IMG/VR virus record: IMGVR_UViG_3300020440_001398
Coordinates: 1-25,170 of that record
Strand: one strand, 5' to 3'
DNA: 25,170 nucleotides
Source of the DNA: a virus
Taxonomy: Duplodnaviria; Caudoviricetes
Notes under the pieces: model-generated
The model's database searches: none
Told to the model about the DNA's origin: nothing
The model's input: the letters and a program-made list of their open reading frames with translations, nothing else
Shown here: positions 1-24,378 of the stretch, piece after piece
How positions within the stretch are numbered: position 1 is the first letter of the stretch
Layout: each line of letters opens with the position of its first letter
Translations under genes and position numbers: made by a program

Positions 1-1203
1 GGTTGGGAAGAATGGTCCGGGGAACAATACCATCGTGCGGCACAATCCGCAAGGCAATGGTATTATGAAAACTATAAGCCAGTAGATCTTTATCCTGCTG
101 TTTGGCAATGGATGGAGCAAAATGATTACACTAAAGAACAAATTAGACATGCTAAGTCAGCACCTAGTTACGAACTAAGTATTACAGCTGGCATCACAGC
201 AAAATTACTTATGAACGGGATGCCTGATTATAACGAGAAACATGACAAGTATTGGGAGAGTCTTCCTGGTACAATGGGAAATACCGCTCCTGCTTCAAAG
301 TTTTTAAAAGAACGAATTAAATGTGCTATAGAAGCAGGTTCAAAAGTTGTAGAAGAAAAAAAAGAAATTGAAAAAGAAAAAGCAAACGTATATGTTCCTA
401 CTATACAAGAACGTATTAGAGACCAAGCATATATTCAAAGTGAAGCAATAGACGAATGGTTGGAAGGTTGGATAATTGACCCAAAGTCGTTTGACCCGAA
501 AGGGTTTGACTTTAAAAAACATTTTTCAGAAATGAATGTTACACAAGCACATGCTAGAAAATTAAAAACATTTTTCGAACATGAACTAGATGACTATAAA
601 GAACTAGAAAGATATCCAACAGCAGGACAACTGAAAAAAATGGATGAAAACGAAGCTGACCAGTGGCTACAACTAAAAGAAGGGTATGGACACTTTAAGA
701 AAGCTGATATCAAAAAACTTTTTATAGCCGTAGAAGGCTTGTTACAAGCGTTGGATTTTGTGATTGAGACAGCCAAAGCAACACGAGCTCCAAGAAAGAG
801 CAAACCTAAGAGTGCTACTAAACTTGTAGAAAAACTAAAATATTTGAAAATTGACAACAAATTCAAACTTGCAAGTATATCTCCAGATCAAATTATAGGT
901 ACAAGCGAGCTTTGGGTATTCAATGTCAAAACACGTAAACTAGGAAAGTATATTGCTAAGAATATAGATCCAAAAGGGTTCCAACGTGATGGTAGTGGTT
1001 TGAGTGTTAAAGGTACTACTATACAAGGATATGATGAAGAACAAAGTATTCAAAAAACATTACGCAAACCTGAACAACAACTTAAAGAGTTTAAAGATGC
1101 AGGAAAAGTAAAATTACGTAAGTTCTTAGATGATATTCCTACTACAGACACAAAACTGAACGGTAGATGTAATCCTGAAACTATACTTCTTAAAGTAAAC
1201 TGA
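1..1203 (+). CDS. Conserved phage hypothetical protein, 5'-truncated by the window edge
   Basis: Frame 1 is open from base 1 (GWEEWSGEQYHRAAQ...) into the ORF called at 112, so the real start is probably upstream. Lys-rich C-terminal half (RAPRKSKPKSATKLVEKLKY...LWVFNVKTRKLGKY) resembles hypothetical proteins of large T4-like phages. Function unknown. Confidence 0.75.
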   Translation, partial: GWEEWSGEQYHRAAQSARQWYYENYKPVDLYPAVWQWMEQNDYTKEQIRHAKSAPSYELSITAGITAKLLMNGMPDYNEKHDKYWESLPGTMGNTAPASKFLKERIKCAIEAGSKVVEEKKEIEKEKANVYVPTIQERIRDQAYIQSEAIDEWLEGWIIDPKSFDPKGFDFKKHFSEMNVTQAHARKLKTFFEHELDDYKELERYPTAGQLKKMDENEADQWLQLKEGYGHFKKADIKKLFIAVEGLLQALDFVIETAKATRAPRKSKPKSATKLVEKLKYLKIDNKFKLASISPDQIIGTSELWVFNVKTRKLGKYIAKNIDPKGFQRDGSGLSVKGTTIQGYDEEQSIQKTLRKPEQQLKEFKDAGKVKLRKFLDDIPTTDTKLNGRCNPETILLKVN

Positions 1204-1209
1204 TAAATA
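1202..1209 (+). promoter_or_regulatory. Late-type promoter GATAAATA
   Basis: TAAATA core (1204-1209) resembles the T4 late promoter TATAAATA and recurs before several structural genes in this window. ATG at 1215 lies 5 nt after it. Confidence 0.65.
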
Positions 1210-1214
1210 TTAGC

Positions 1215-2312
1215 ATGAGTATACATGACATAAGAACAGGATTAACTGCTTTGACTAATGCCGTAGATGCACTACAAAGCGCACCGCCACCATCACCTGA
1301 AATACTAGACAGAGCTTTGTCTGGTAATAAAATTAACGGTGGAATGATAACAAACTTCAGTTCAAAAGGAATAACGGACGAAGCTACAGTTAATCAAATT
1401 CTTACTGTACACAATGATGGTATTACTGTAAAAGCAATACAAACACAATCTATAGACAATTCTCTTACAGTAAAAGGTGATTTAACTGTTCAAGGCGAAG
1501 TACATGCAACAAGGTTACATGTGGATGAAGTTAGTGCAGATGTACGTAATGAAAGATCTTCGTCACTAGAATTTACTGCAACATCAGGAGCACATAGTGG
1601 CAAAGGCTTACTATGGACTGGTGCTGAAGATTATACAAAACAATTTGTGTTTCGTAACCAACCAAACAGAATGTGGAGTAGCGACGATATAGATATTGAT
1701 CGCGAAAAAGTATATCGTATAGAAGGCATTCCTGTACTAACACTTACAACACTAGGAAGAAGTGTAACTGAAAGTAACTTACAAACTCTGGGAACATTAC
1801 AGTCATTAGAAGTACAAGGTAATGTTAACATAGACGGAGTTGTGTATTGGGATACTGATAGTGAAAGACTTGGTATAGGAACTGATGCTCCTAACGGTAT
1901 GTTAGCTCTAAAGAACATAGATCATGAATTTATAATAGACAATACTATTGATAAAAAATTTAAATTAGGAACTTGGACTACAAGTGCATTACAAATTGTT
2001 ACAGATGACACTACACGTATAGAAGTAGCAGCAAACGGAAATATTAGTCTCAATGGCAGAGTAAATATTACACACCCGATAGGAGTTGGTGTTAATAACT
2101 TTGCAGATGATGTAGATATTACTACAGCTAGAGCTGTAAGAATACAGAACAAAAAATTTGAAACTGGCACATCAGTGCCTAGTACAGGTAACTATATAGT
2201 CGGAGACATAATATGGAATCAAAATCCTACTCCAACAGGCTTCGTTGGATGGATATGTGTAAGAGCTGGTACTCCGGGAGAATGGAAAAAGTTTGGTCAA
2301 ATTCAAAGTTAA
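1215..2312 (+). CDS. Putative virion structural / tail-fibre-like protein
   Basis: Gly/Thr/Val/Asn-rich beta-repeat character (RLGIGTDAPNG). C-terminal GDIIWNQNPTPTGFVGWICVRAGTPGEWKKFG motif is typical of phage tail fibre/spike termini. Late-type promoter upstream. Confidence 0.6.
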   Translation: MSIHDIRTGLTALTNAVDALQSAPPPSPEILDRALSGNKINGGMITNFSSKGITDEATVNQILTVHNDGITVKAIQTQSIDNSLTVKGDLTVQGEVHATRLHVDEVSADVRNERSSSLEFTATSGAHSGKGLLWTGAEDYTKQFVFRNQPNRMWSSDDIDIDREKVYRIEGIPVLTLTTLGRSVTESNLQTLGTLQSLEVQGNVNIDGVVYWDTDSERLGIGTDAPNGMLALKNIDHEFIIDNTIDKKFKLGTWTTSALQIVTDDTTRIEVAANGNISLNGRVNITHPIGVGVNNFADDVDITTARAVRIQNKKFETGTSVPSTGNYIVGDIIWNQNPTPTGFVGWICVRAGTPGEWKKFGQIQS

Positions 2313-2324
2313 GTTCTTAATACA

Positions 2325-2588
2325 ATGTGGGAATTCTTAGCAAAAATATTACCGGCGATAGCTTTACTGTTAGTGTTAATTGTACACTTTTCTGATTTAC
2401 AAAATACCTTTGATTACATAATGATAGCTATTTCTGTTGCCTTTAGTGTAACAGCAGTTATATGGTGGTGGTGGATAATGATGTTTGCTAGAAAACTTAC
2501 TGAAGTAAATAATAAAAGTTTAGACCGCTTTGAGGAAATAGCAAAAGAATTAAAAGACCTACGAAAAGAGATCAATAAGAAGAAATAA
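2325..2588 (+). CDS. Small membrane protein (2 TM helices plus charged coiled-coil tail)
   Basis: Two hydrophobic stretches (ILPAIALLLVLIVHF; YIMIAISVAFSVTAVIWWWWIMMFA) followed by a charged heptad-like C-terminus. Packs tightly between neighbours. Confidence 0.65.
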   Translation: MWEFLAKILPAIALLLVLIVHFSDLQNTFDYIMIAISVAFSVTAVIWWWWIMMFARKLTEVNNKSLDRFEEIAKELKDLRKEINKKK

Positions 2589-2589
2589 A

Positions 2590-3165
2590 ATGTTTGTACT
2601 AGGTAACGGAGAAAGCAGAAAACCAATTAATGTAAATGCGTTGCCAGGTCCTACTATAGGATGTAATGCTATTTGCCGAGACTACTTTGTGGATCATCTA
2701 ATATGTGTAGATCGTAGAATGGTCGAACAAGCCCATAATAATTACTCCCAAAACTTTAACAAAATTTACACTAGAACAGACTGGTTAGATAATTTTGAGC
2801 ATATTAAAAATCTATTTGCAGTTCCTGAAGTGCCTTACGGAATAGAAGTAAGAGCAGATGAACCCTTCCAATGGGGGAGTGGGCCATATGCTGTATTGTT
2901 AGCAACACTGATGAGTAAGGAAATTCATATGATAGGTTTTGATTTGTATGGTAAAGGGCAACTTGTAAATAACATATACAAAGATACTGAACACTATGAT
3001 GCTTCAAACAAAAGTGCAGTTGATCCTAGATATTGGAAACATCAAATAGGTAAAGTAATAGAATCAAATCAGCACATAAAATTTATCATATATCAAAGCG
3101 AATGGGATTTGCCAAAACAGTGGAATTTTGCTAATGTTTCACTTGACAGCCTAAGAAACTTATAG
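2590..3165 (+). CDS. Cst-II/Maf(DUF115)-like Rossmann-fold transferase (sialyltransferase-like)
   Basis: Motif order VLGNGESR...IGCNA...GSGPYAVLLA...KEIHMIGFDLY parallels Campylobacter Cst-II (IAGNGPSL...RCN...TSG...KEIYLSGIDFY). Confidence 0.55.
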   Translation: MFVLGNGESRKPINVNALPGPTIGCNAICRDYFVDHLICVDRRMVEQAHNNYSQNFNKIYTRTDWLDNFEHIKNLFAVPEVPYGIEVRADEPFQWGSGPYAVLLATLMSKEIHMIGFDLYGKGQLVNNIYKDTEHYDASNKSAVDPRYWKHQIGKVIESNQHIKFIIYQSEWDLPKQWNFANVSLDSLRNL

Positions 3166-3171
3166 TATAAT
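3143..3171 (+). promoter_or_regulatory. Consensus sigma70 promoter for the queD operon
   Basis: TTGACA (3143-3148), 17-nt spacer, TATAAT (3166-3171): perfect consensus. A late-like TAAGTA follows at 3171-3176. Confidence 0.85.
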
Positions 3172-3183
3172 AAGTATAATACA

Positions 3184-3235
3184 TAGAGGACTTAGCGTCA
3201 ACCCTCCTAATTCTGCCGCTGTAACATAGGAGAAT
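3184..3235 (+). ncRNA. Candidate cis-regulatory pseudoknot RNA (preQ1-I-riboswitch-like) in the queD 5' UTR
   Basis: P1: GAGG 3186-3189 / CCUC 3203-3206. Loop UAGCG 3193-3197 pairs with CGCUG 3217-3221 (H-type pseudoknot). CUCCUA 3204-3209 is complementary to the SD region UAGGAG 3227-3232. Lies between promoter and queD. Confidence 0.5.
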
Positions 3236-3239
3236 AAAC

Positions 3240-3716
3240 ATGGCTTTTTATAGCACAAAAACATACGGACACAACATTGGACTTTCAGCAGTGTTCAGAC
3301 AACCTAATGCAGATCATTCACACTGTCATCTGCTTCACGGATACAGTCTGCAATTTAAATTTACATTTGGATGTTCAGACCTTGACAACAAAAACTGGGC
3401 AGTAGACTTTGGTGGATTGAAACCATTGAAGGCTTGGCTCGAAGATAGTTTTGATCACAAGACATGTGTAGACATTAACGATCCACACAAACAAGACTTC
3501 TATGATTTGCAAGACAAAGACTTGTGCGAAGTAAGAGAATTTGATGGTGTTGGTGCAGAGATGTTTGCAAAACATGCTTATGATTTTGCTACACAACTTG
3601 TTGAAAAAATGACCAACGGACGTTGTTGGGTTGAATCTGTCGAGTGTGCAGAGCATGGTGCTAACAGTGCTATCTATACTCCCTTCGAATCTCAGAAGAT
3701 TAGATTTGATGGCTAA
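3240..3716 (+). CDS. queD: 6-pyruvoyl-tetrahydropterin synthase / 6-carboxy-tetrahydropterin synthase family (QueD-like)
   Basis: T-fold PTPS/QueD motifs: HCHLLHGY, W.VDFGGLK, FDHK, GAEMFAK, VESVECAEH. Strong SD AGGAGA at 3228-3233. Confidence 0.85.
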   Translation: MAFYSTKTYGHNIGLSAVFRQPNADHSHCHLLHGYSLQFKFTFGCSDLDNKNWAVDFGGLKPLKAWLEDSFDHKTCVDINDPHKQDFYDLQDKDLCEVREFDGVGAEMFAKHAYDFATQLVEKMTNGRCWVESVECAEHGANSAIYTPFESQKIRFDG

Positions 3717-4533
3717 GATTGATAAAAGCAAATATACCAAAGAAGAAATTAAAGCAATGAAAGCAGCAAAGCGTGAGCGTAAGGCTGCTAAATTGTTAAA
3801 AAACTCTGTGAAGAACTTTCCTGCTTCAAAAGATAAGAATATTTTAGTCCTAAAACACGGACAAAAATACAGTGCCGATTATGTGAACAAAATGTATAAT
3901 ATGGTTACTGCTAATCTTGAATATGATTTCAACTTCTATTGTATTACTGAAGATCCTGTCAATCTTAATCCTAAAATAAATGTTATTCCTTTACCCACTG
4001 TTGCAGTTACCGGTTGGTGGTACAAGCCGTATATATTTTCGGCAGATTTACCTATAGAAGGAACTATCCTTTATCTAGATTTAGATCTTGTTGTAACAAA
4101 TAGTTTGGATAGACTGTTTGATTTTTATCCGGGAGAATATTGTATTATTAGAGACTTCACTCGAAGTATGCGTCCTAATTGGGAAAAGTATAATTCTAGT
4201 GTAGTAAGATTTGAAAAGGGACAACTTGATCACGTTTGGCAACGTTTTCAAAAAGAACATCTTTTAATCATGCGTAAATTTTATGGTGATCAAGACTATC
4301 TGTGGGAAGTTACTCAAGGTAAAGCAAAAGTATTTCCAGACCCCTGGGTAAGAAGTTGGAAGTGGGAAGTACGCAAAGATAAAAGATTCAAGCCAGGCCA
4401 GACTCGAGGAAATAGAGAGCTACAAGATATTGAACATGTTAAAGCACCAGAGGACTGTTGTATTGTTGCATTTCATGGTGATCCTAATCCTCATAATTGT
4501 CATGATCCGTATATAGTAGAAAAATGGAAATAG
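3709..4533 (+). CDS. GT-A fold (GT8-like) glycosyltransferase
   Basis: DxD motif in ILYLDLDLVV, plus YNSSVVRF, GDQDYL and VAFHGDPNPH. Likely start is ATG 3709, overlapping the queD stop, rather than the 3631 ORF-finder start. Confidence 0.8.
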   Translation: MAKIDKSKYTKEEIKAMKAAKRERKAAKLLKNSVKNFPASKDKNILVLKHGQKYSADYVNKMYNMVTANLEYDFNFYCITEDPVNLNPKINVIPLPTVAVTGWWYKPYIFSADLPIEGTILYLDLDLVVTNSLDRLFDFYPGEYCIIRDFTRSMRPNWEKYNSSVVRFEKGQLDHVWQRFQKEHLLIMRKFYGDQDYLWEVTQGKAKVFPDPWVRSWKWEVRKDKRFKPGQTRGNRELQDIEHVKAPEDCCIVAFHGDPNPHNCHDPYIVEKWK

Positions 4534-5063
4534 AAACTTTTGATAATTTAATACCAATGAATATACAAGAAGAACTGTTAGCACTACATACTGACAATTA
4601 TTTTCCCTGGTACTTCCAATCACAAACAGCAGATTATAACGACAAATTTGCAAATTTTAAAGATGTTGAATGTTTTCAATTTAGTCATGGATCTTTTTAT
4701 AATGGAGAAAAACTAAGTGAAGTTTTCGACTACACAAAAAAAATTTTAAACTATATAGATGGTGCTTTTGATATTTTAAGGATAAAGTCAAACTTCACAA
4801 CTAACATTACTAATTATAAAACAGGCGACCATCAACCTATTCATATAGATAGTAACACAGATAATGTGTCTTTGCTTTATTATGTTAACGACAATGACGG
4901 AGGAACATTATTTTTTGATAATAACAATAATGTTGTAAAAAAAGTAAATGCAAAGAAAGGCAGACTTTTAGTCTTTCCTGCCAATATGAAACATGCAGGA
5001 TTCAATCCTATTAAACATCAATACAAGATTGTAATAAATTATGTTCTTGACAAAAACAAATAA
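4524..5063 (+). CDS. 2OG-Fe(II) oxygenase superfamily protein
   Basis: HxD (PIHID), LLYYVNDNDGGTLFF, KKGRLLVFP, distal His (KHAG) and KIVIN strand, the pattern of phage prolyl-hydroxylase-like oxygenases. Confidence 0.85.
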   Translation: MEIETFDNLIPMNIQEELLALHTDNYFPWYFQSQTADYNDKFANFKDVECFQFSHGSFYNGEKLSEVFDYTKKILNYIDGAFDILRIKSNFTTNITNYKTGDHQPIHIDSNTDNVSLLYYVNDNDGGTLFFDNNNNVVKKVNAKKGRLLVFPANMKHAGFNPIKHQYKIVINYVLDKNK

Positions 5064-5075
5064 AGGTGTTATTAT
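5047..5075 (+). promoter_or_regulatory. sigma70 promoter with extended -10 for uvsE
   Basis: TTGACA 5047-5052, 17-nt spacer, TG at 5067-5068, TATTAT 5070-5075. Expected +1 coincides with ATG 5082. Confidence 0.75.
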
Positions 5076-5081
5076 ACTAAC

Positions 5082-6155
5082 ATGATGAATCACAAACGCA
5101 TAGGCTTTGCATGTAAATACATGCATCCAGATCAAACACAGAAAAAGAAACTTCTCGAGGAAATACAGCGACCGCTAAATACTCGTAGCACAACAGTACA
5201 ATGGCTCAATAGGCAGACACGTGATGTTGCTGAAGAACGCTTATGGGAACTAATGGTTCACAACATTGCGTCATACAAGAGGTTGATTGAATATGTTGGA
5301 AGCCTTCCTCCAGAACTTCGTATGGTCAGATTGGGTAGCGATGTCCTTCCTGTTTATACCGAGCCTACTTGGTGTTATTATTGGCGCAAGCCCGATGTTA
5401 TTGCGTATTGCGAAAGAGAGTTTGCCAAGGTCGGTGAAACAGCAAGAACCCTCGATGTCCGATTATCGATGCACCCAGGCCAATTTACTGTACTTGCAAG
5501 CGACAACCCAGAGATTGTCGAAAGATCTATAGAGGAGTTTGAATATCATGTTAATTGCATCAGATGGATGGGCTATGGCCAATCGTTCCAAGACTTTAAA
5601 TGCAACGTCCATATATCCGGTAGGCAAGGTCCAGCCGGTATCAAACACGCAGTCAACAACAGACTTTCTCCAGAAGCGAGAAACACGATTACGATCGAAA
5701 ATGACGAAAACAAATGGGGTCTCGATTCAAGCATCGAGCTCGTCGACACCTGCGCATTGGTACTCGACATACACCATCACTGGTGCCGTGAAGGTGAATA
5801 TATACGTGCCACCGACGATAGATTTAATCGCGTGATAGATTCGTGGCGTGGTGTGCGTCCTGTGATACATTATTCATACAGTAGAAACGAACACTTGCCA
5901 GATGGCTACAATCATATAGGTATGCCCGACATGACTACATTAATAGAGTCAGGCTACAAGAAAGCAAAATTACGTGCTCACAGCGATTACTATCCAAACA
6001 ATGCTGTAAATGACTGGGCATTGTCGTTTTTGCCATATGCAGATATTATGTGCGAAAGCAAGTGTAAAAACCTTGCAAGTATAAATTTATATAAATACTA
6101 TATAGGAGACAAACATGAAAACAAAAGGCATAAAAAAGAACTTGTCCTTGGATAA
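5082..6155 (+). CDS. uvsE: UV damage endonuclease (UvdE/UvsE family)
   Basis: RIGFACK N-terminus, RLGSD, RLSMHPGQF, IENDE, VLDIHHHW, HYS, RAHSD and DIMCESKCKN motifs of the UVDE TIM-barrel family. Confidence 0.92.
   Translation: MMNHKRIGFACKYMHPDQTQKKKLLEEIQRPLNTRSTTVQWLNRQTRDVAEERLWELMVHNIASYKRLIEYVGSLPPELRMVRLGSDVLPVYTEPTWCYYWRKPDVIAYCEREFAKVGETARTLDVRLSMHPGQFTVLASDNPEIVERSIEEFEYHVNCIRWMGYGQSFQDFKCNVHISGRQGPAGIKHAVNNRLSPEARNTITIENDENKWGLDSSIELVDTCALVLDIHHHWCREGEYIRATDDRFNRVIDSWRGVRPVIHYSYSRNEHLPDGYNHIGMPDMTTLIESGYKKAKLRAHSDYYPNNAVNDWALSFLPYADIMCESKCKNLASINLYKYYIGDKHENKRHKKELVLG
6090..6097 (+). promoter_or_regulatory. T4-type late promoter TATAAATA
   Basis: Exact TATAAATA inside the uvsE 3' end, followed by SD AGGAG (6104-6108) and ATG 6115. 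Confidence 0.7.
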
Positions 6156-6285
6156 AATTAAAGGGATCCGTATTGATACAGGGCCTGTAACATATGTCCC
6201 TGTTGTAAAAGAATATAAATTTCCAACGCCTGAAAAATCTATAAAAGCTAAAGATAATATTAAAAAAGACGGCTGGAAATATTAG
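6115..6285 (+). CDS. Small Lys-rich hypothetical protein (56 aa), missing from the ORF track
   Basis: Translated by hand: MKTKGIKKNLSLDKIKGIRIDTGPVTYVPVVKEYKFPTPEKSIKAKDNIKKDGWKY. Has a late promoter and AGGAG SD. Its stop overlaps the SD of the next gene. Confidence 0.75.
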   Translation: MKTKGIKKNLSLDKIKGIRIDTGPVTYVPVVKEYKFPTPEKSIKAKDNIKKDGWKY

Positions 6286-6293
6286 GAGTTAAA

Positions 6294-6455
6294 ATGAAAA
6301 ATTGGATCAAATCAAGAATTGAGGAACGCACATCAATGGATGGTGCTGTTCTAATAGGATTAGGACTAATTGTATTGATTGCAGGACCTTTTGCTAAACT
6401 AGCTGCTTATGCAGCAATAGCATATGGTGCATGGACTATTTGGAAAAAAGACTAA
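6294..6455 (+). CDS. Small two-TM membrane protein (53 aa, holin-like), missing from the ORF track
   Basis: MKNWIKSRIEERTSMDGAVLIGLGLIVLIAGPFAKLAAYAAIAYGAWTIWKKD. SD AGGAG at 6284-6288. Hydrophobic hairpin with a basic C-terminus. Confidence 0.75.
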   Translation: MKNWIKSRIEERTSMDGAVLIGLGLIVLIAGPFAKLAAYAAIAYGAWTIWKKD

Positions 6456-6739
6456 AGTTTACTTATATCTAAACCACTACTGGCTGGTAAATCCCAGATG
6501 TGTTTTCTTGTGACTCCCATCTTTTGAGCAAACTTTTTACTATCGCAACTACCACATACATGAAAATAATTATTGTTTATCCTATTAGGATCCATACTAC
6601 TTCGTAGTCTTTCAAATTCTGTATTACAATTATCACAGCGTAAAACTAACATAGTGCGGTTGCGAGTATATTCGTGCTTGACTCCGCATTTACTATGTCT
6701 AGTGTATCGCTTTGCTACCAAAAATTCTTTTATATACAT
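6452..6739 (-). CDS. Metal-binding (CxxC...CxxC) basic hypothetical protein
   Basis: RCDNC and VCGSC pairs. Fills a gap with no credible + strand gene. Own TAAATA promoter on the minus strand. 4-bp convergent stop overlap with 6294-6455. Confidence 0.7.
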   Translation of the reverse strand: MYIKEFLVAKRYTRHSKCGVKHEYTRNRTMLVLRCDNCNTEFERLRSSMDPNRINNNYFHVCGSCDSKKFAQKMGVTRKHIWDLPASSGLDISKL

Positions 6740-6744
6740 AACTA

Positions 6745-6780
6745 TATTTACATTAAGTTTATAAAAAGCAACGATAAATA
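6745..6780. promoter_or_regulatory. Back-to-back late-type promoters
   Basis: TATTTA at 6745-6750 (TAAATA on the minus strand) and GATAAATA at 6773-6780 on the plus strand. Confidence 0.6.
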
Positions 6781-6799
6781 CATTTATAAAGGAGCCAAA

Positions 6800-7174
6800 A
6801 TGACTGTTTGCACACTGACTGACGCCGCAAAAACACAGATAGATACTATCTGTACAGAAAATAATGCTATTGCAGTAACATTAAATATGAAGGGTGGAGG
6901 ATGTGCCGGCTTTGAATACGACTGGGGTACTATTAGCGATGCACGAGATATACAAGACGGTGATGAGATTATACCAACAGACGAAGGCTTTAGTTTAATT
7001 ATAGGTTCACACAGCATTATGTTTATGATAGGAACTGTGGTAGACTACAAAAAAGATATTATAGGTTCGATGTTTGATATTACAAATCCTAATGCACAGA
7101 GTAGTTGCGGGTGTGGTGTAAGTGTTAACTTCGATATAGACAAATTACAAATACCGCTTGAGATGGAGCAATAA
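6800..7174 (+). CDS. iscA: A-type Fe-S cluster carrier (IscA/SufA/ErpA, HesB family)
   Basis: GGGCAGFEY and NPNAQSSCGCGVS supply the three conserved Cys. Start reassigned to ATG 6800, after SD AAGGAG, instead of 6674. Confidence 0.9.
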   Translation: MTVCTLTDAAKTQIDTICTENNAIAVTLNMKGGGCAGFEYDWGTISDARDIQDGDEIIPTDEGFSLIIGSHSIMFMIGTVVDYKKDIIGSMFDITNPNAQSSCGCGVSVNFDIDKLQIPLEMEQ

Positions 7175-10100
7175 ATGGCAAAACAAGATATTAATATTGG
7201 TGTAGAGGGTAATGATGGTACTGGCGATAGTATTAGAGAATCGTTTCGTAAAACCAATGAAAACTTTCAAGAACTGTATGCAGTTTTTGGAGTTGGTGGA
7301 CAAATTACATTTACAACGCTAAGTGACACACCAGATGAACTTACACCTAACACAATACCATTAGTAAATGATGCAGGGACATTAATTAATTTAGTTACAC
7401 TAGCATCAAATAGTGCATTGGGTGGAGGAGCAACAGATACAATTACATTTAGTTATGATACAGCAGGCAAACTAATTATTTCTAGCTCGTTTACAAAAAT
7501 GAGTGATGACCTAAGTCCTACTCTAGGTGGCCCATTAGATGCAGGTGGTTTTGGTATTGCAAACGTTGGCATAAGCACAGCAGAAGCAGAACGTCTTAAC
7601 ACTACACACGATAATCTATCAGGACTTACAATTGACGATTTAGTAATTACCAAAGGATATGCAGACCAAAGATACATAACATCTGGATTGCCATTACGAG
7701 TAGCAAATGAACCAGCCGGTAAATTGCATTACACTTGGGAAATTAGTCAATATGTAAATGATAGTATAGAAATTATAAGCCATTACAATGTAGCTCAGGG
7801 CTTAGTAGCAGGTGGCCATGGTTTAGAAAGTGGGCAAAACGGAACTGCTGTTGTGTTTAATGCTGAAGATACTGATCCCAATAACTTAGTATCAGGCACA
7901 ACATATTATCTAAGAGTTGTTACACCCACAAGAATATACTTGTATACAGAAGCAAATAAAGCATATGCAACGACAGACGTACAAGCAGATGCAGATACAT
8001 TTAAAATTAACCCTTCAGGTACTATTGCAACAGATGACACGCATACAATAGTAGATGCAGCATTAGATATTACACTAGCAGGCAACTTCTTATCTGATAC
8101 TAGTATGCCAAGGAATTCTACTGTACGTAGACAAGGTGATACAATGACCGGTGAGTTGTATCTAAATGATCACCCAGGCGAACTAGCAGGAGAAGGCGCA
8201 CCTAATGGTCCTGAAGATTTACAAGCTGCAACAAAATACTATGTAGACAACACTGCATACAGTTCACCAGAAGTATTATTTGTTAGCACACAAGGCAACG
8301 ACTTAATGAGTGGTGTGCCAGCAGGTAAAGAAGGTACATCATTAACATATGCATTTAGAACAATTAATAAAGCAGCCGAACGTGCTGAAGAATTAGTAAG
8401 AAGTGCTCGAAAAGAGCCGGGCAACTACATGCAAACACTAACACACTCTGGTTTTACAAAAGATAGTGTTGTTATAAATTCTGACGTAGATGTACCTGTT
8501 TACGAACAAGCAAGGAATCTCTTAGATAGGAACACAGATTACATTGCTGCAGAAGTAGTTGGTTTTATTAATAAAACTTTTCCTGACTTTGCTTATAATT
8601 CTGCAACATGTGCTAGAGATACAAAGTTAATAATTAATGCTATTGCCCTGGATATCAACAGAGGACTTACAGCAAATTATCTTACAAGACAAGCTGCTGA
8701 AAGTTACTTTTCCGGTGTTAGTGCAAGGTTAGCAATTACAACACAATTAACTCAAACTGTTGCAGGTATTGTAGCAGCAAGGGACATATCAACCGCTTTA
8801 TTGACAAACGATTTATACAATCAAAAAAATATCAGCAATATAACAGTCGCAGCGATTCCTGTAGTAACAACTACCACTGCACACGGACTAGTTGATAAAG
8901 ACATTGTTGTGTTTAGAGACATAAAAGGTATGATTGAAATTGTCAATAATACTAAAAAATATGTTAGAGTTACAGGCACACAAACATTTGAACTTTACAA
9001 TGATAAAGATCTCACTACACCATTTGATACATCGACATTCACTGGATTTACATCAGGTATACTTGGTCAAGTATTCCAGACAGAAGAAGATCAGTTTTTA
9101 GATCTCGGCACAATTTTTACAATTACTACAGCAGGAAATGTAACTGTTTTTGCTGGAGAAACACTTACACAAGCAGGTAGTGGAGCAACAGGCGTTGTAC
9201 AAACATCCGTAACTAACGGCACAACAATAAAATTAGAACAAACTACAGGAACTTTCAATACAGGTAATAATTTCACTGGATCAATAAGCGGTGCATTAGG
9301 ACCTGATAGTGTTCCTACAGTTATTGCAAATGACTTTGATGCTGATGCAAATGCTATAGCCGCAATCCAAGATAAATTTGACTTAGTAAACACAATAATA
9401 CAAAACGGATTAGACGCAGGTGGAGATATTGTATATGGAAGTACATATAAAATTGTTGTAACAAATGGTGCAGCTTCTTATACAGATCAAACGTTTCCTA
9501 GCAACACTGATGCATTACCAGGTAAAGTGATAAGAGGTAAACGATCTGAAGCTATCGGACAAATTGTTAGTTTCACTAACGATGTAGGTGCAGAAGCAGC
9601 AACTGACCCACAGACGGGTGCAAGTGAACCTGGACCCACAGTATTCCAAGTACACTTGTTAAGTGCAAAAGATTTTGAACCTGAAGAGCCGCTAGAGTAT
9701 GGTAACATAGTTGCTAGAAAGCAAGTTACTATTATGGTTGAAACAGGTATATATGAAGAAGACTATCCTATTAGGTTGTCTAACAATGTATCACTTAAAG
9801 GTGATGAGTTCAGACGTGTAATTATCAAACCTAAAACAGAAACAGATTCAAGAGTACCTAGAGTATCGCAAAGTAAATGGGCAAACTTGTATTTCTACAG
9901 GGATAATACATTTGATGGATTAACTATTAACAACGGTGGTACACCATTCTTTAACCAAGACGGGATATCGCAAGGTAAATTTGGTTACCATTATCTAGCA
10001 GAAGGCGGTAAACCATTAAATCTAGGACCTACAGTTACAAACGTAGGCGGTTATACAACTGCAAGTAATATTATTTTAGAAAACAAAGATTACATTATTG

Positions 10101-13100
10101 AAGAAACTATTAGATTTATAAGTGATAGGTTTCCTGAATTAACTTATTCTCAAGCTAAATGTAGACGAGACACAGCGTTAATAGTAGACGCAATAGTTAA
10201 AGATCTAAAAGATGGCGGCGAAGTCATGACCCTAGAAGTACAAGGATCATATCATTCGTTACTGACAAACGGAGATTATCTTACACAATTAGGTGATAGT
10301 TCACAAGAAATTGCAACCGAAGCCGCAATTGATAACATCAGTACACTTTCAAATGCATTGTTGTCAGGTGTTGCTCCAAACTATACTGTAGTAGATGCAC
10401 AATTTACACCTACTGATGCAACATATGATCCTCTTACAGGTGTTTTAGTTGCAACAATAGGCACACATAGTTTATCTGTAGGACAATATATTGAAATTGA
10501 ACTTAATGGATTTACGTTCACTTGTGCATCAGATGGAAACGTAACACCAGTTACTTTTCCTAGAGCAACAGATCCAGCATTCCAAACTAAACTAGAAATA
10601 ACTGCAAAAACTGCAACAACTATTACAGTTAATGTAGGAACTTCATCTGAAACATCAGCACACACTTTTGTCAGTGCAGCAACCAACGCAATAACATTTG
10701 GTGAATACACAGCAGGTGCGGCAGCAGTTATTGCAGCTGAGCCGGTTGATATTTCGCTAGGTGCAGGTGAATCAGGAACAGCGGCAGTAGTCGGTCAATT
10801 AATTGACAAAATAACTTTTGTATTTGATCCCCAATATAATCCACCTAAACGTAATGATGCACTAGATGTATTTTTGATGAGTGATGCTACAATTATTCGT
10901 AACGTAACTGTGCAAGGTCACGGTGGCTTTATGTGTGTACTAGATCCGCAAGGACAGGTTCTTACTAAATCACCCTACATTCAAACAGCATCTAGTTTCT
11001 CAAAGAGTATAAACAAAAAAACTTTTGCTGGCGGCATGTATGTTGATGCTTATGTAGGTAACTTACCTACAAGAATTACAGGCCAACCAGAGACAGCAGA
11101 TAAATTTAAACTTACTGTACAAAGTAATCCAGGTGAAGGACTAAGGCTGCGTCCACCTGAACTACCTTGTCCTTTCTATGTTGAAGGAAGACGGTATCAG
11201 GTAAATGCTATATCAGATTATGATCAGGGACAAGGTACTGCCACAATTTATCTAGATGCTAACAGTAATAAAGGTGACGGATATGATGTAGAACAATTTG
11301 ACGATTCAAGTGTTGAAAGAGATATTTTCTTACAGACAGCTGGTAACAGATCAATGCTAGCCAATGACTTTACACAGATTAATGATTTAGGCTACGGCTT
11401 AATTGCTAACAATGCTGCATTCTCAGAACAAGTGTCAACATTTACATACTACTGTCAAACAGCTATGTATGCTAATAATGGTTCTGAAATTAGAGGACTT
11501 AACTGCTCTAATGGCTACGGTAACTTTGGTTTGATTGCTGAAGGTGCTGATCCTAACGAAATTCCGGATCAAGTTACACTTAAAAATGATATGGTACAAC
11601 CAGCAAAAGCATTTACTACAGGAACATTTGCTAACGCATTAGACGATCCTAGTATCACAGTTACAGATCTAAAAACTCCGCCTTCTGCGAACAGTTTGAT
11701 TACGATTGATCATGGTGGTGCAACGGGTACATTAAATTATGTTGTTTCTACAGTTACAAATCTAAGTGACGTTGACGGTGACGGAATATCAGGAGAAGCC
11801 GGAGATGTAATTGTTACTGGTGTTAGTGCTTTAGACAACGGGACACTAGCAGGGACAACAGCATCTCTAGGAACATTCGGCGGAATTGCAACAAACAATA
11901 CAGGATCTGGTACTGGACTTACAGTAGATGTAACTATTACAGGAGTTGGTGCAATAGGCGGCTCAGGAGCGGCAGTTGTAGCTATATCAACACCCGGTAG
12001 TGGATACTCCACAAGTGATACTATTACAATCAGTGGTAGTAACTTAGGAGGCAGTTCTCCTACTAATGATTTAACAATTAATGTAAGTACAATTTTTGGA
12101 ACTGTAGCTGGTGTACACAATAACTTTGTTTATAAATTAGATCTTAAAGCAGATGATGTAAGTGCAGACGACTTTTTTGGAACACTTCAAGCAACGGTTG
12201 CTAACAATACAATTATTGAATATAGAGATAGTTTTAATTTTATATTTGATAGTGTAGGTGATCCAACAGGACTTGTTACTAGACCAAGTACAGCAATTAA
12301 CTTTGATGAAAGCGATAACACAACCTATAGAAGTATTGCATTCAGTAATAAAGATAGTTTTAGTCAAGACTTAGCATCAGATGAAATTTTAACAACATTT
12401 GAAGCTGGCTTCGATTTTGTACAATTAGCAGTAAAAACAGATCAACTAAGTGGTGGTTACGGATCAGCACAAGGTGATACAAAATTAGCAATAGCTCAAT
12501 TAACATCTAGTGATTTAAATATATTCGACGATACTGAAAGAGTTACACGAGACAGTTCAACACAAGCAGGACTATATCCAGGAGATCCAGGTTACAGTGC
12601 CACAGGTGGTATGCGTTTCTTATGGGACGGTAAAACACATGGTATAACAAATTATACACCTGTTGCAGAATTTACACTAACTGGTAGTGTGAGTGTAACA
12701 GCAGGTGAAACTATTACACAAGCTACTACAGGTGCTACTGGTGTTGTACATGCTAGTGTATCTAGTAATACGATAGAATTAGAAAATGTAACAGGAACTT
12801 TTAACACCTCAGATCAATTGACAGGATCAACCAGTGGAGCATTAGGTGCTAATAGTGTACCCACTACAATCAACCTGACTAGTTGGGCATATATTAATTT
12901 TGTTGACATTGCTGGTACAAATATTAATAGTGGTTATAGTGGCGCCGGATTAAACAGTGCGATTCCTGCAGCTGAAAGAACACTATCAGCAGGATTAGCA
13001 AGTGGTGCTACAAGCGAAATCACAGTAAGTATTTCACTTATGAGAGCAACTGGACACGATTTTACACAAATTGGTACAGGATCTTTTAACGATAGTAACT

Positions 13101-23856: not shown

Positions 23857-24378
23857 ATGCTTATGAAAACAGACTCTCTCGGTATTCCGCGATTCACAAA
23901 TAAAGATCTTATAGACATGATCTATACAGGTCATTCAGACAAAGTGCATGTTGTGCTTTGTGACGAATCAGATGATATAGATAAATTTAACAAGGCTATG
24001 GAAGAACAAGGTCTTAGTAAACTACAAAAATATATCCCATTAAATGTAGACGAAAAGACTTTTGACGGTGTATGTCAAAGTGAATGGTTTATGCCTGACG
24101 CATACAAAGCCATTAATATACATAATTATATCATGCCAAAATGCCTATCACCAGAAGAAGCTACAAGAGTAGAAGAAGAACTACAAGCGTTTAAAGAACG
24201 TGACATGTATGATCTTTTACGCTATATGATTTATCTTGTGGACTTTATGCGTGAGAACAATATTGTATGGGGTGTAGGACGTGGATCAAGTGTAGCAAGT
24301 TATGTACTATATTTGATAGGCGTACACAAAATAGATTCGATCCAGTTTGGCCTGGATTGGAGAGAGTTCTTAAGATAA
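23857..24378 (+). CDS. dnaE: DNA polymerase III alpha (DnaE, family C) partial palm-domain protein
   Basis: RVEEELQAF...LLRYMIYLVDFMRENNIVWGVGRGSSVASYVLYLIGVHKIDSIQFGLDWREFLR aligns by eye with the DnaE segment RLETEL...GPGRGSGAGSLVAYAL.IT.LDP..FDLLFERFL. Only 173 aa. Confidence 0.85.
   Translation: MLMKTDSLGIPRFTNKDLIDMIYTGHSDKVHVVLCDESDDIDKFNKAMEEQGLSKLQKYIPLNVDEKTFDGVCQSEWFMPDAYKAINIHNYIMPKCLSPEEATRVEEELQAFKERDMYDLLRYMIYLVDFMRENNIVWGVGRGSSVASYVLYLIGVHKIDSIQFGLDWREFLR

Follow-up and report, generated by a model that had tools for sequence, protein, structure and literature searches.

The control of biosynthetic genes that phages carry themselves is seldom assigned to their own RNA, and the locus described here raises the question of whether the untranslated leader of a phage queD-like gene forms a riboswitch and, if so, what it senses and in which direction it acts. 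The DNA analysed (hereafter 'the window') comprises 25,170 nucleotides, positions 1 to 25,170 of the IMG/VR virus record IMGVR_UViG_3300020440_001398 (Duplodnaviria; Caudoviricetes). An original prediction, made from the sequence alone, had proposed that the leader forms a small preQ1-like pseudoknot, either a variant or a new class of translational riboswitch, by which the phage tunes its own pathway.

The virus and its relatives

The record carries UvsE, IscA-like and GroES-like genes and long structural genes together with the PTPS-family gene, and large aquatic phage contigs (up to 519 kb) display the same gene order as the window. Some of its other genes are unusual in their own right. 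A stand-alone protein of 173 amino acids (23857-24378) corresponds to only a portion of the NTPase domain of DNA polymerase III alpha; despite this piece, the large contigs related to the window encode a family B polymerase. The sole likely real minus-strand gene (6452-6739) encodes a protein of 95 amino acids with two CxxC motifs, which is divergent from the IscA-like gene and for which a Pfam search gave no match. Two phage contigs (L330 and L339) have been binned into Bacteroidota metagenome-assembled genomes in GTDB, which is either a weak hint to the host or a binning error. The notion that the leader motif occurs across phages with different replicative polymerases was dropped as unsupported, family B polymerase being encoded by 11 of the 12 large contigs.

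Promoter and leader

The gap at 3166-3239 (74 nt) is, as originally claimed, the longest in the window among internal gaps between plausible genes (longer stretches at the two edges of the window are open-ended). The claim of a perfect sigma70 promoter likewise stands: of 43 promoter matches in positions 1-12000, the one just upstream of the leader is the sole 12/12 match, with its -35 box placed inside the last codons of the upstream open reading frame (2590-3165). We infer a transcription start at about 3177-3179; the leader between promoter and queD-like start measures about 60 nt and is untranslated, and no sense-strand terminator was found. Of 253 leaders, 107 have a similar promoter 8-16 nt upstream of the GG of the motif (45 nt examined). 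The RNA runs, covered as assembled contigs with small shares, could not show expression, and the start of one relative's RNA contig at 3183 is no evidence of a transcript start.

Every pairing originally listed for this leader, that of AUUCU-g-CC (3210-17) with GGAGAAU (3229-35) among them, is present in the sequence, as is C3202 (Table 1). Folded alone, the leader is no more stable than shuffled versions of itself (z -0.30; 74 of 200 shuffles as stable), so the single sequence provides no evidence of structure and the case rests upon comparison.

Table 1. Coordinates of the promoter, leader elements and downstream gene in the window
Feature	Position	Strand	Basis
Sigma70-type promoter, TTGACA-17-TATAAT	3143..3171	+	12/12 consensus match; consensus match only
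P1: GAGG 3186-89 with CCUC 3203-06	3186..3206	+	Covariation; 13/13 tree-independent pairs
L1: A3190 (variable, U6 equivalent), conserved C3191 and U3192	3190..3192	+	Base tally, 156 leaders
P2a: UAGCG 3193-97 with CGCUG 3217-21, pseudoknot helix	3193..3221	+	Covariation
P2b: C3199-G3215 and A3200-U3214, with U3198.C3216 mismatch; candidate ligand site	3198..3216	+	Covariation, tally
L2: A3201 (variable) and C3202 (preQ1-I specificity cytosine equivalent)	3201..3202	+	Base tally
L3: CUAAUUC, conserved A3210, U3212 and C3213	3207..3213	+	Base tally
Predicted OFF helix 1: CUCCUA 3204-09 with UAGGAG 3227-32	3204..3232	+	Lowest-energy fold, -9.0 kcal/mol
Predicted OFF helix 2: P2 3' strand 3215-3222 with start-codon region 3238-3244	3215..3244	+	Suboptimal, -8.3 kcal/mol
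PTPS/QueD-like gene, 158 aa, CxxxHGY for CxxxHGH	3240..3716	+	PF01242, E 7.9e-13

Anatomy of the pseudoknot

The leader at 3186-3221 is an H-type pseudoknot with a core of 36 nt, built from P1, P2a and a P2b of two base pairs. The first two helices are those originally drawn and are borne out by the comparison; P2b had been missed and is an addition to that model, its variable pair being A-U in 34 and G-C in 10 of 45 diverse leaders. A U3198.C3216 mismatch, kept as U.C in 150 of 156 leaders, separates P2a from P2b. In the same 45 leaders, one pair of P1 is A-U in 31, U-A in 13 and C-G in 1, and entire P1 variants such as GCGG/CCGC and CCGG/CCGG occur; the pair at the floor of the presumed pocket, G3189-C3203, is G-C in 33/33 protein-selected rows. 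The sequence of P2a is free while its pairing is kept, with 8-26 double changes at each of its five pairs (45 rows).

Whereas P2a drifts in sequence, the unpaired bases are 90-99% conserved in leaders that were selected by their protein. C3202 is a cytosine in 155/156 leaders; C3191 and U3192 are kept in 142/156 and 140/156; and A3210, U3212 and C3213 each reach 151/156. Position 3190 varies widely (A 60, U 50, C 39, G 7). These tallies cover 156 distinct leaders from four protein-selected sets, aligned by a pairing parse that fixes no more than the G-C of the floor and the outer C-G of P2b. That anchored parse, which replaced a structure-only parse with a background of 103/300, accepts 87 of 1000 background windows, and a few of the 156 rows are therefore false.

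Covariation and distribution

The check named with the original prediction, covariation of the pseudoknot upstream of homologous queD genes, gave a strong result: across 45 diverse leaders the covariation score was 0.570 versus 0.155 after shuffling (0/500), with slid controls at or below 0.189, and across 33 protein-selected leaders drawn from the best 80 homologue loci it was 0.364 versus 0.134. P1, P2a and P2b were the only helices to covary. When the A-U/U-A switch in P1 was followed over a QueD tree of 194 rows, both sides changed together in all 13 independent pairs. Hundreds of uncultured phages keep the pseudoknot by means of compensating base changes, and a cis-regulatory RNA family of uncultured phages is real and well supported.

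The element is tied to one gene. Two pattern scans of viral contigs that took no account of gene content, with estimated totals of about 140 and about 540 matches, of which at least 239 were counted, placed the motif upstream of a PTPS homologue in 235 of the 239 matches listed (156 distinct); the three distinct exceptions shown correspond to a contig end, a QueD of another subfamily and a mis-picked start. A looser scan returned 120 matches, 87 of them with the helices and 82 of these before PTPS; six matches parsed as unstructured also precede PTPS. The element always lies on the sense strand, 18-42 nt from the start codon, and each of four large contigs that bear it holds one copy, beside a single PTPS gene. 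No second match to the model was found near folE in five large contigs or at four folE loci. A distance of 90-170 nt separates the motif from the PTPS homology downstream of it in a number of contigs (L617, L627 and L635; also L596, L620 and L575), which points to long extensions at the N terminus or to a short reading frame upstream.

The downstream proteins range from about 30% to more than 90% identity with that of the window, and the QueD subfamilies that carry the element are only about 30% identical over their aligned part. Among the best 80 of 596 confirmed protein-selected homologue loci the element is present at 66 and absent from 14, and in a second subfamily, with the canonical CxxxHGH, the model matches 12 of 80 loci and fails at the other 68; the element is thus dispensable. 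At element-less loci that were inspected, the promoter lies directly upstream of the ribosome site.

A pattern search of GTDB genomes, for the GGACU long-L3 form only, returned 21 matches, of which two score 53-58 bits and precede PTPS, and the remaining 19 are without the helices; both true copies lie among the same phage genes as in the window and are therefore read as phage contigs in bins. In cultured phages, the element occurred at none of the seven queD loci considered out of 108 records with a homologue, and blastn of one leader against cultured phages gave chance matches only. Two cultured jumbo phages, Achromobacter phage Motura (L475:1455-1481) and Sinorhizobium phage Phosso (L474:1462-1481), have different hairpins in gaps of 67-88 nt before queD, with no match to the model.

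Expression platform

The Shine-Dalgarno sequence (AGGAG, 3228-32) lies 3' of the end of P2 at 3221 and hence outside of it, so that the manner in which preQ1-I riboswitches turn genes off is inapplicable here. Instead, two alternative folds are predicted to close the ribosome site. OFF helix 1 breaks P1 and covers the Shine-Dalgarno; OFF helix 2, the form that covaries in the family, engages the start codon. In the window the P2a 3' strand adds just -1.4 kcal/mol to the OFF fold, but both closed folds exclude the pseudoknot, and the same logic should therefore hold in this sequence.

Family-wide, duplexes between the P2a 3' strand and the start region have a mean energy of -6.05 kcal/mol, versus -4.54 when partners are permuted (0/2000; 123 distinct pairs) and -2.89 when their letters are shuffled; these permutation tests of the platform ignore kinship. 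A CAU able to pair with the start codon occurs within 10 nt in 172 of 253 leaders, versus a mean of 55 and a maximum of 77 in shuffles. The -1 pair that flanks this anti-AUG is C-G in 94, A-U in 34 and U-A in 27, and for its C-G form both sides co-change in 8/8 tree-independent pairs; the tree tests were without significance for the A-U (p 0.63) and U-A (p 0.22) forms and for the +5 pair (p 0.5), and the -2 position showed no covariation. The same strand is used against the Shine-Dalgarno in a second type of platform (CCUAUG/CAUAGG, compensated as CCUAUA/UAUAGG) and in a third (ACUCC/GGAGU). Over 127 protein-selected leaders, the P2a 3' strand adds -3.63 kcal/mol to the OFF fold, versus -2.66 when swapped among leaders (best of 60 swaps, -3.07). 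Blocking the aptamer raised accessibility in 212 of 253 leaders, a rise that is partly built into the method. In one subgroup, a conserved irregular stem between motif and start codon (AAACUUACUC or AAACUUGCUAC with GGCAAGAG or GACUAGAG; L352, L375, L394 and many others) prolongs the anti-start-codon helix over the Shine-Dalgarno.

The two helices originally proposed to hide the Shine-Dalgarno, while present in the window, do not serve as the family-wide platform and were set aside in that role, since they hardly covary (P1 3' strand with Shine-Dalgarno, -4.56 versus -4.45 kcal/mol permuted, 58/2000; end of L3 with Shine-Dalgarno, 173/2000) and the covarying platform uses the P2a 3' strand. 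As the P2 3' strand competes with helices over the start codon or ribosome site, formation of the pseudoknot would turn translation on, and the three designs, all of which compete with P2, indicate ON control. In the absence of ligand, the competing helix would block initiation; binding would stabilize P2 and free the ribosome site, so that QueD is made.

Relationship to known riboswitches

Searches of Rfam with the window, at E values up to 10, returned no preQ1 family (including preQ1-I, RF00522) and no relevant family of any other kind; a search with 3120-3300 alone also gave no relevant family, its best hit (U6 snRNA, 15.5 bits) being due to chance. The guanidine-III riboswitch, a compact H-type pseudoknot and translational ON switch, resembles the element in both architecture and predicted direction, but differs in its conserved loop bases and gene context, and no Rfam match connects the two.

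The likeness to preQ1-I is closer. In both, a small H-type pseudoknot precedes a que gene, with P1 closed by a G-C floor pair, a cytosine just 5' of the 3' strand of P1 (C3202) and an A-containing L3; a conserved C ends L3, as in type I of that class (relevant passages of PMC11625349). According to the same passages, class I recognition relies upon the specificity C, U6, A30 and the G5 floor. In the element, by contrast, the first base of L1 is variable where preQ1-I conserves U6; U3212 occupies what appears, from our mapping of positions, to be the place of A30 (L3 ends in U then C in 151/156 leaders, with adenines only at -4 to -6); a long variable P2a extends beyond the U.C mismatch; and the Shine-Dalgarno stands outside P2 with predicted ON control, rather than buried in P2 or replaced by a terminator with OFF control. 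The element is also found on phage contigs only and lacks an Rfam match. Because it departs from preQ1-I in three defining features and has no Rfam match, it is not filed under that class. The original proposal of a preQ1-like variant or new class thus survives in its shape, floor pair, specificity C, translational wiring and candidacy for a new class, and fails in its membership of preQ1-I.

Classes II and III of preQ1 riboswitches, in which a single U performs the work of U6 and A30, are likewise pseudoknotted and use one C and one U for a guanine-like base, but their HLout folds are larger and contain U-A-U triples and additional helices, none of which is seen here (as presented in part of PMC11625349). 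THF-II, as described in passages of PMC9881143, reads a pterin or 7-deazaguanine with a C and a U (C22 and U44); as predicted for the element, its translational control falls on a pterin-pathway gene, and its conserved C and U face each other between stacked helices, an arrangement that U3198.C3216 or C3202 and U3212 of the element may resemble. It is, however, a rod-like hairpin before folE that acts as an OFF switch, as opposed to a pseudoknot before queD with predicted ON control, and again no Rfam match links them. The idea that guanine-II riboswitches occur in phages found no support, the word 'phage' being absent from PMC9295807. No description of the motif was found in the literature searched, and the supplements of PMC10690425 that were covered, among them the table of domains lying up to 25 bp downstream, contain neither a PTPS/QueD entry nor any of six motif words; its alignments, outside that scope, may hold the motif unnamed.

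The gene product and its pathway

The product of the gene at 3240-3716 scores 34.7 bits against TIGR03367, below the cut-off of 89. Alignment to solved QueD structures places a Phe and a Tyr at two histidine positions of E. coli QueD, both of which we take to be zinc ligands. For the second of the two this role is described in part of PMC10516641, and the signature of QueD (PTPS-I) is given as CxxxHGH in passages of PMC5041015 and PMC10516641. CxxxHGY takes its place in the window protein and in 174 of the 175 distinct proteins encoded downstream of the element, which may be zinc-poor or zinc-free QueD enzymes judging from these substitutions. With both histidines replaced, activity is assigned from context, an example being a gene of phage BcepGomr, 55% identical, that lies within a queE-queC-queD-folE-tgt cluster.

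The pathway was surveyed in 12 large contigs that bear the motif and range in completeness from 44 to 100%. FolE is encoded in 11 of the 12, a QueE-like protein in all five tested (one weak), weak and divergent QueC-like PP-loop proteins in seven of 12 and a QueF-like gene in two of 12. DpdA was found in none of the 12, in a search that could miss distant DpdA types, and TGT in none of five. The divergent QueC-like proteins (L324:1480-2316, L325:1438-2091, L467:1477-2199 and L468:979-1722) have a C-terminal cysteine cluster, with several in one genome and some adjoining radical SAM genes. A phosphoribosyltransferase is present in nine of 12 large contigs (G003-G014), in eight of them no further than about 4 kb from folE, and another lies in the que cluster of BUCT-ZZ01 (loci noted: L321:2522-3046, L323:3052-3507 and L471:2887-3330). 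Such an enzyme could convert 7-deazaguanine bases to nucleotides that are then incorporated during replication.

Candidate ligand

By analogy with THF-II, we infer a pocket in which a C and a U do the reading within a class I scaffold: C3202 would read the Watson-Crick face of the ligand and U3212 its N2/N1/N8 edge; with that mode of reading U6 would be dispensable. The U3198.C3216 mismatch may provide a second or alternative site. Such a pocket would fit any base that presents a guanine-like face and has its N8-H or N9-H free, as do reduced pterins, guanine, CDG, preQ0 and preQ1.

Predicted ON logic argues against feedback by the end product of the pathway, and for a substrate or a signal of sufficiency. 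The substrate of QueD is dihydroneopterin triphosphate, the product of FolE that is shared with folate synthesis (passages of PMC5041015 and PMC10516641), which makes a reduced pterin a tentative first guess. As QueD would draw dihydroneopterin triphosphate off folate synthesis, a phage so equipped would make QueD only when pterin is plentiful. If the element is a riboswitch, a reduced pterin (dihydroneopterin triphosphate or a folate-type pterin, for example) would be the leading candidate, at somewhat short of even odds; guanine or a guanine nucleotide is possible but doubtful, CDG, preQ0 or preQ1 a lesser prospect still, and some other ligand improbable.

Weighing the alternatives

The features by which riboswitches are generally recognized, a conserved structure in the 5' leader, association with one metabolic gene and a mutually exclusive expression platform, are all found at this locus. 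The reading that best joins them, to which we assign a probability of roughly 0.62, is that the pseudoknot serves as aptamer in a translational ON riboswitch for queD, one that is uncatalogued and restricted to phages and that binds a small guanine-faced ligand, most likely a reduced pterin. That a small molecule of some sort operates the switch is quite likely; that it represents a new class, with ON logic and a ligand other than preQ1, is somewhat favoured. All of the structural evidence would also fit with a pseudoknot stabilized by a protein, be it an RNA-binding protein of the phage or of its host, ribosomal protein S1 or QueD itself, that flips the same two states in place of a metabolite, and the confinement of the element to phages in the searches made agrees with such a device. 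The autoregulation of T4 gene 32 through a leader pseudoknot is a precedent. Yet conservation falls on unpaired pyrimidines dispersed about the helix junction and placed as in the preQ1-I pocket (relevant passages of PMC11625349), rather than on a single-stranded run; the element occurs once per contig and only before PTPS; and, given ON logic, autoregulation by QueD would amount to a positive loop. A protein-operated switch is consequently judged unlikely.

A true preQ0 or preQ1 riboswitch, forming a fourth type of class I and sensing the product of the pathway, would account for the H-type scaffold, the floor G-C, the C before the P1 3' strand and the terminal C of the tail, which is shared with type I (part of PMC11625349), and these phages do encode FolE, QueE-like and divergent QueC-like proteins, two of them with a QueF-like gene as well. 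It is nevertheless improbable: the equivalents of U6 and A30 are not kept, no Rfam preQ1 model matches at E values up to 10, the position of the Shine-Dalgarno outside P2 and the ON wiring would have the product raise its own synthesis, and bound preQ1 switches are presented as gene-off only in the relevant passages of PMC11625349. A structure that does not switch at all, acting as a 5' stability cap or as a translational enhancer that keeps the ribosome site open, would suit both the dispensability of the element and its position right where the inferred transcript begins, but a constitutive opener would have no reason to retain, in three designs, a covarying helix that shuts the start codon, and a tie to one enzyme is not expected of stability caps, which leaves little room for it. 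The poor fold of the single sequence (z -0.30) is what an element acting as DNA, or chance pairing in an intergenic gap, would predict; covariation, with double changes and G-U pairs in crossing helices that invariably lie on the sense strand, refutes this, and next to no weight is given to it.

Implications

A phage-encoded ON riboswitch for queD, should it be substantiated, would provide a handle on the role of the FolE-QueD-QueE pathway in jumbo phages in which DpdA was not detected. In its boldest form, which we regard as rather doubtful, a phage-only class would set a rewired pocket in a scaffold like that of preQ1-I, sense a pterin pathway intermediate (a reduced pterin or dihydroneopterin triphosphate) and turn queD on, so that a jumbo phage divides the host's pterin pool between folate and 7-deazaguanine. 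If the scaffold is indeed related to that of preQ1-I, it would show a small aptamer changing its ligand and reversing its logic. New riboswitch classes are rare, and one that is confined to phages would show viruses reading the metabolites of their hosts through RNA of their own.
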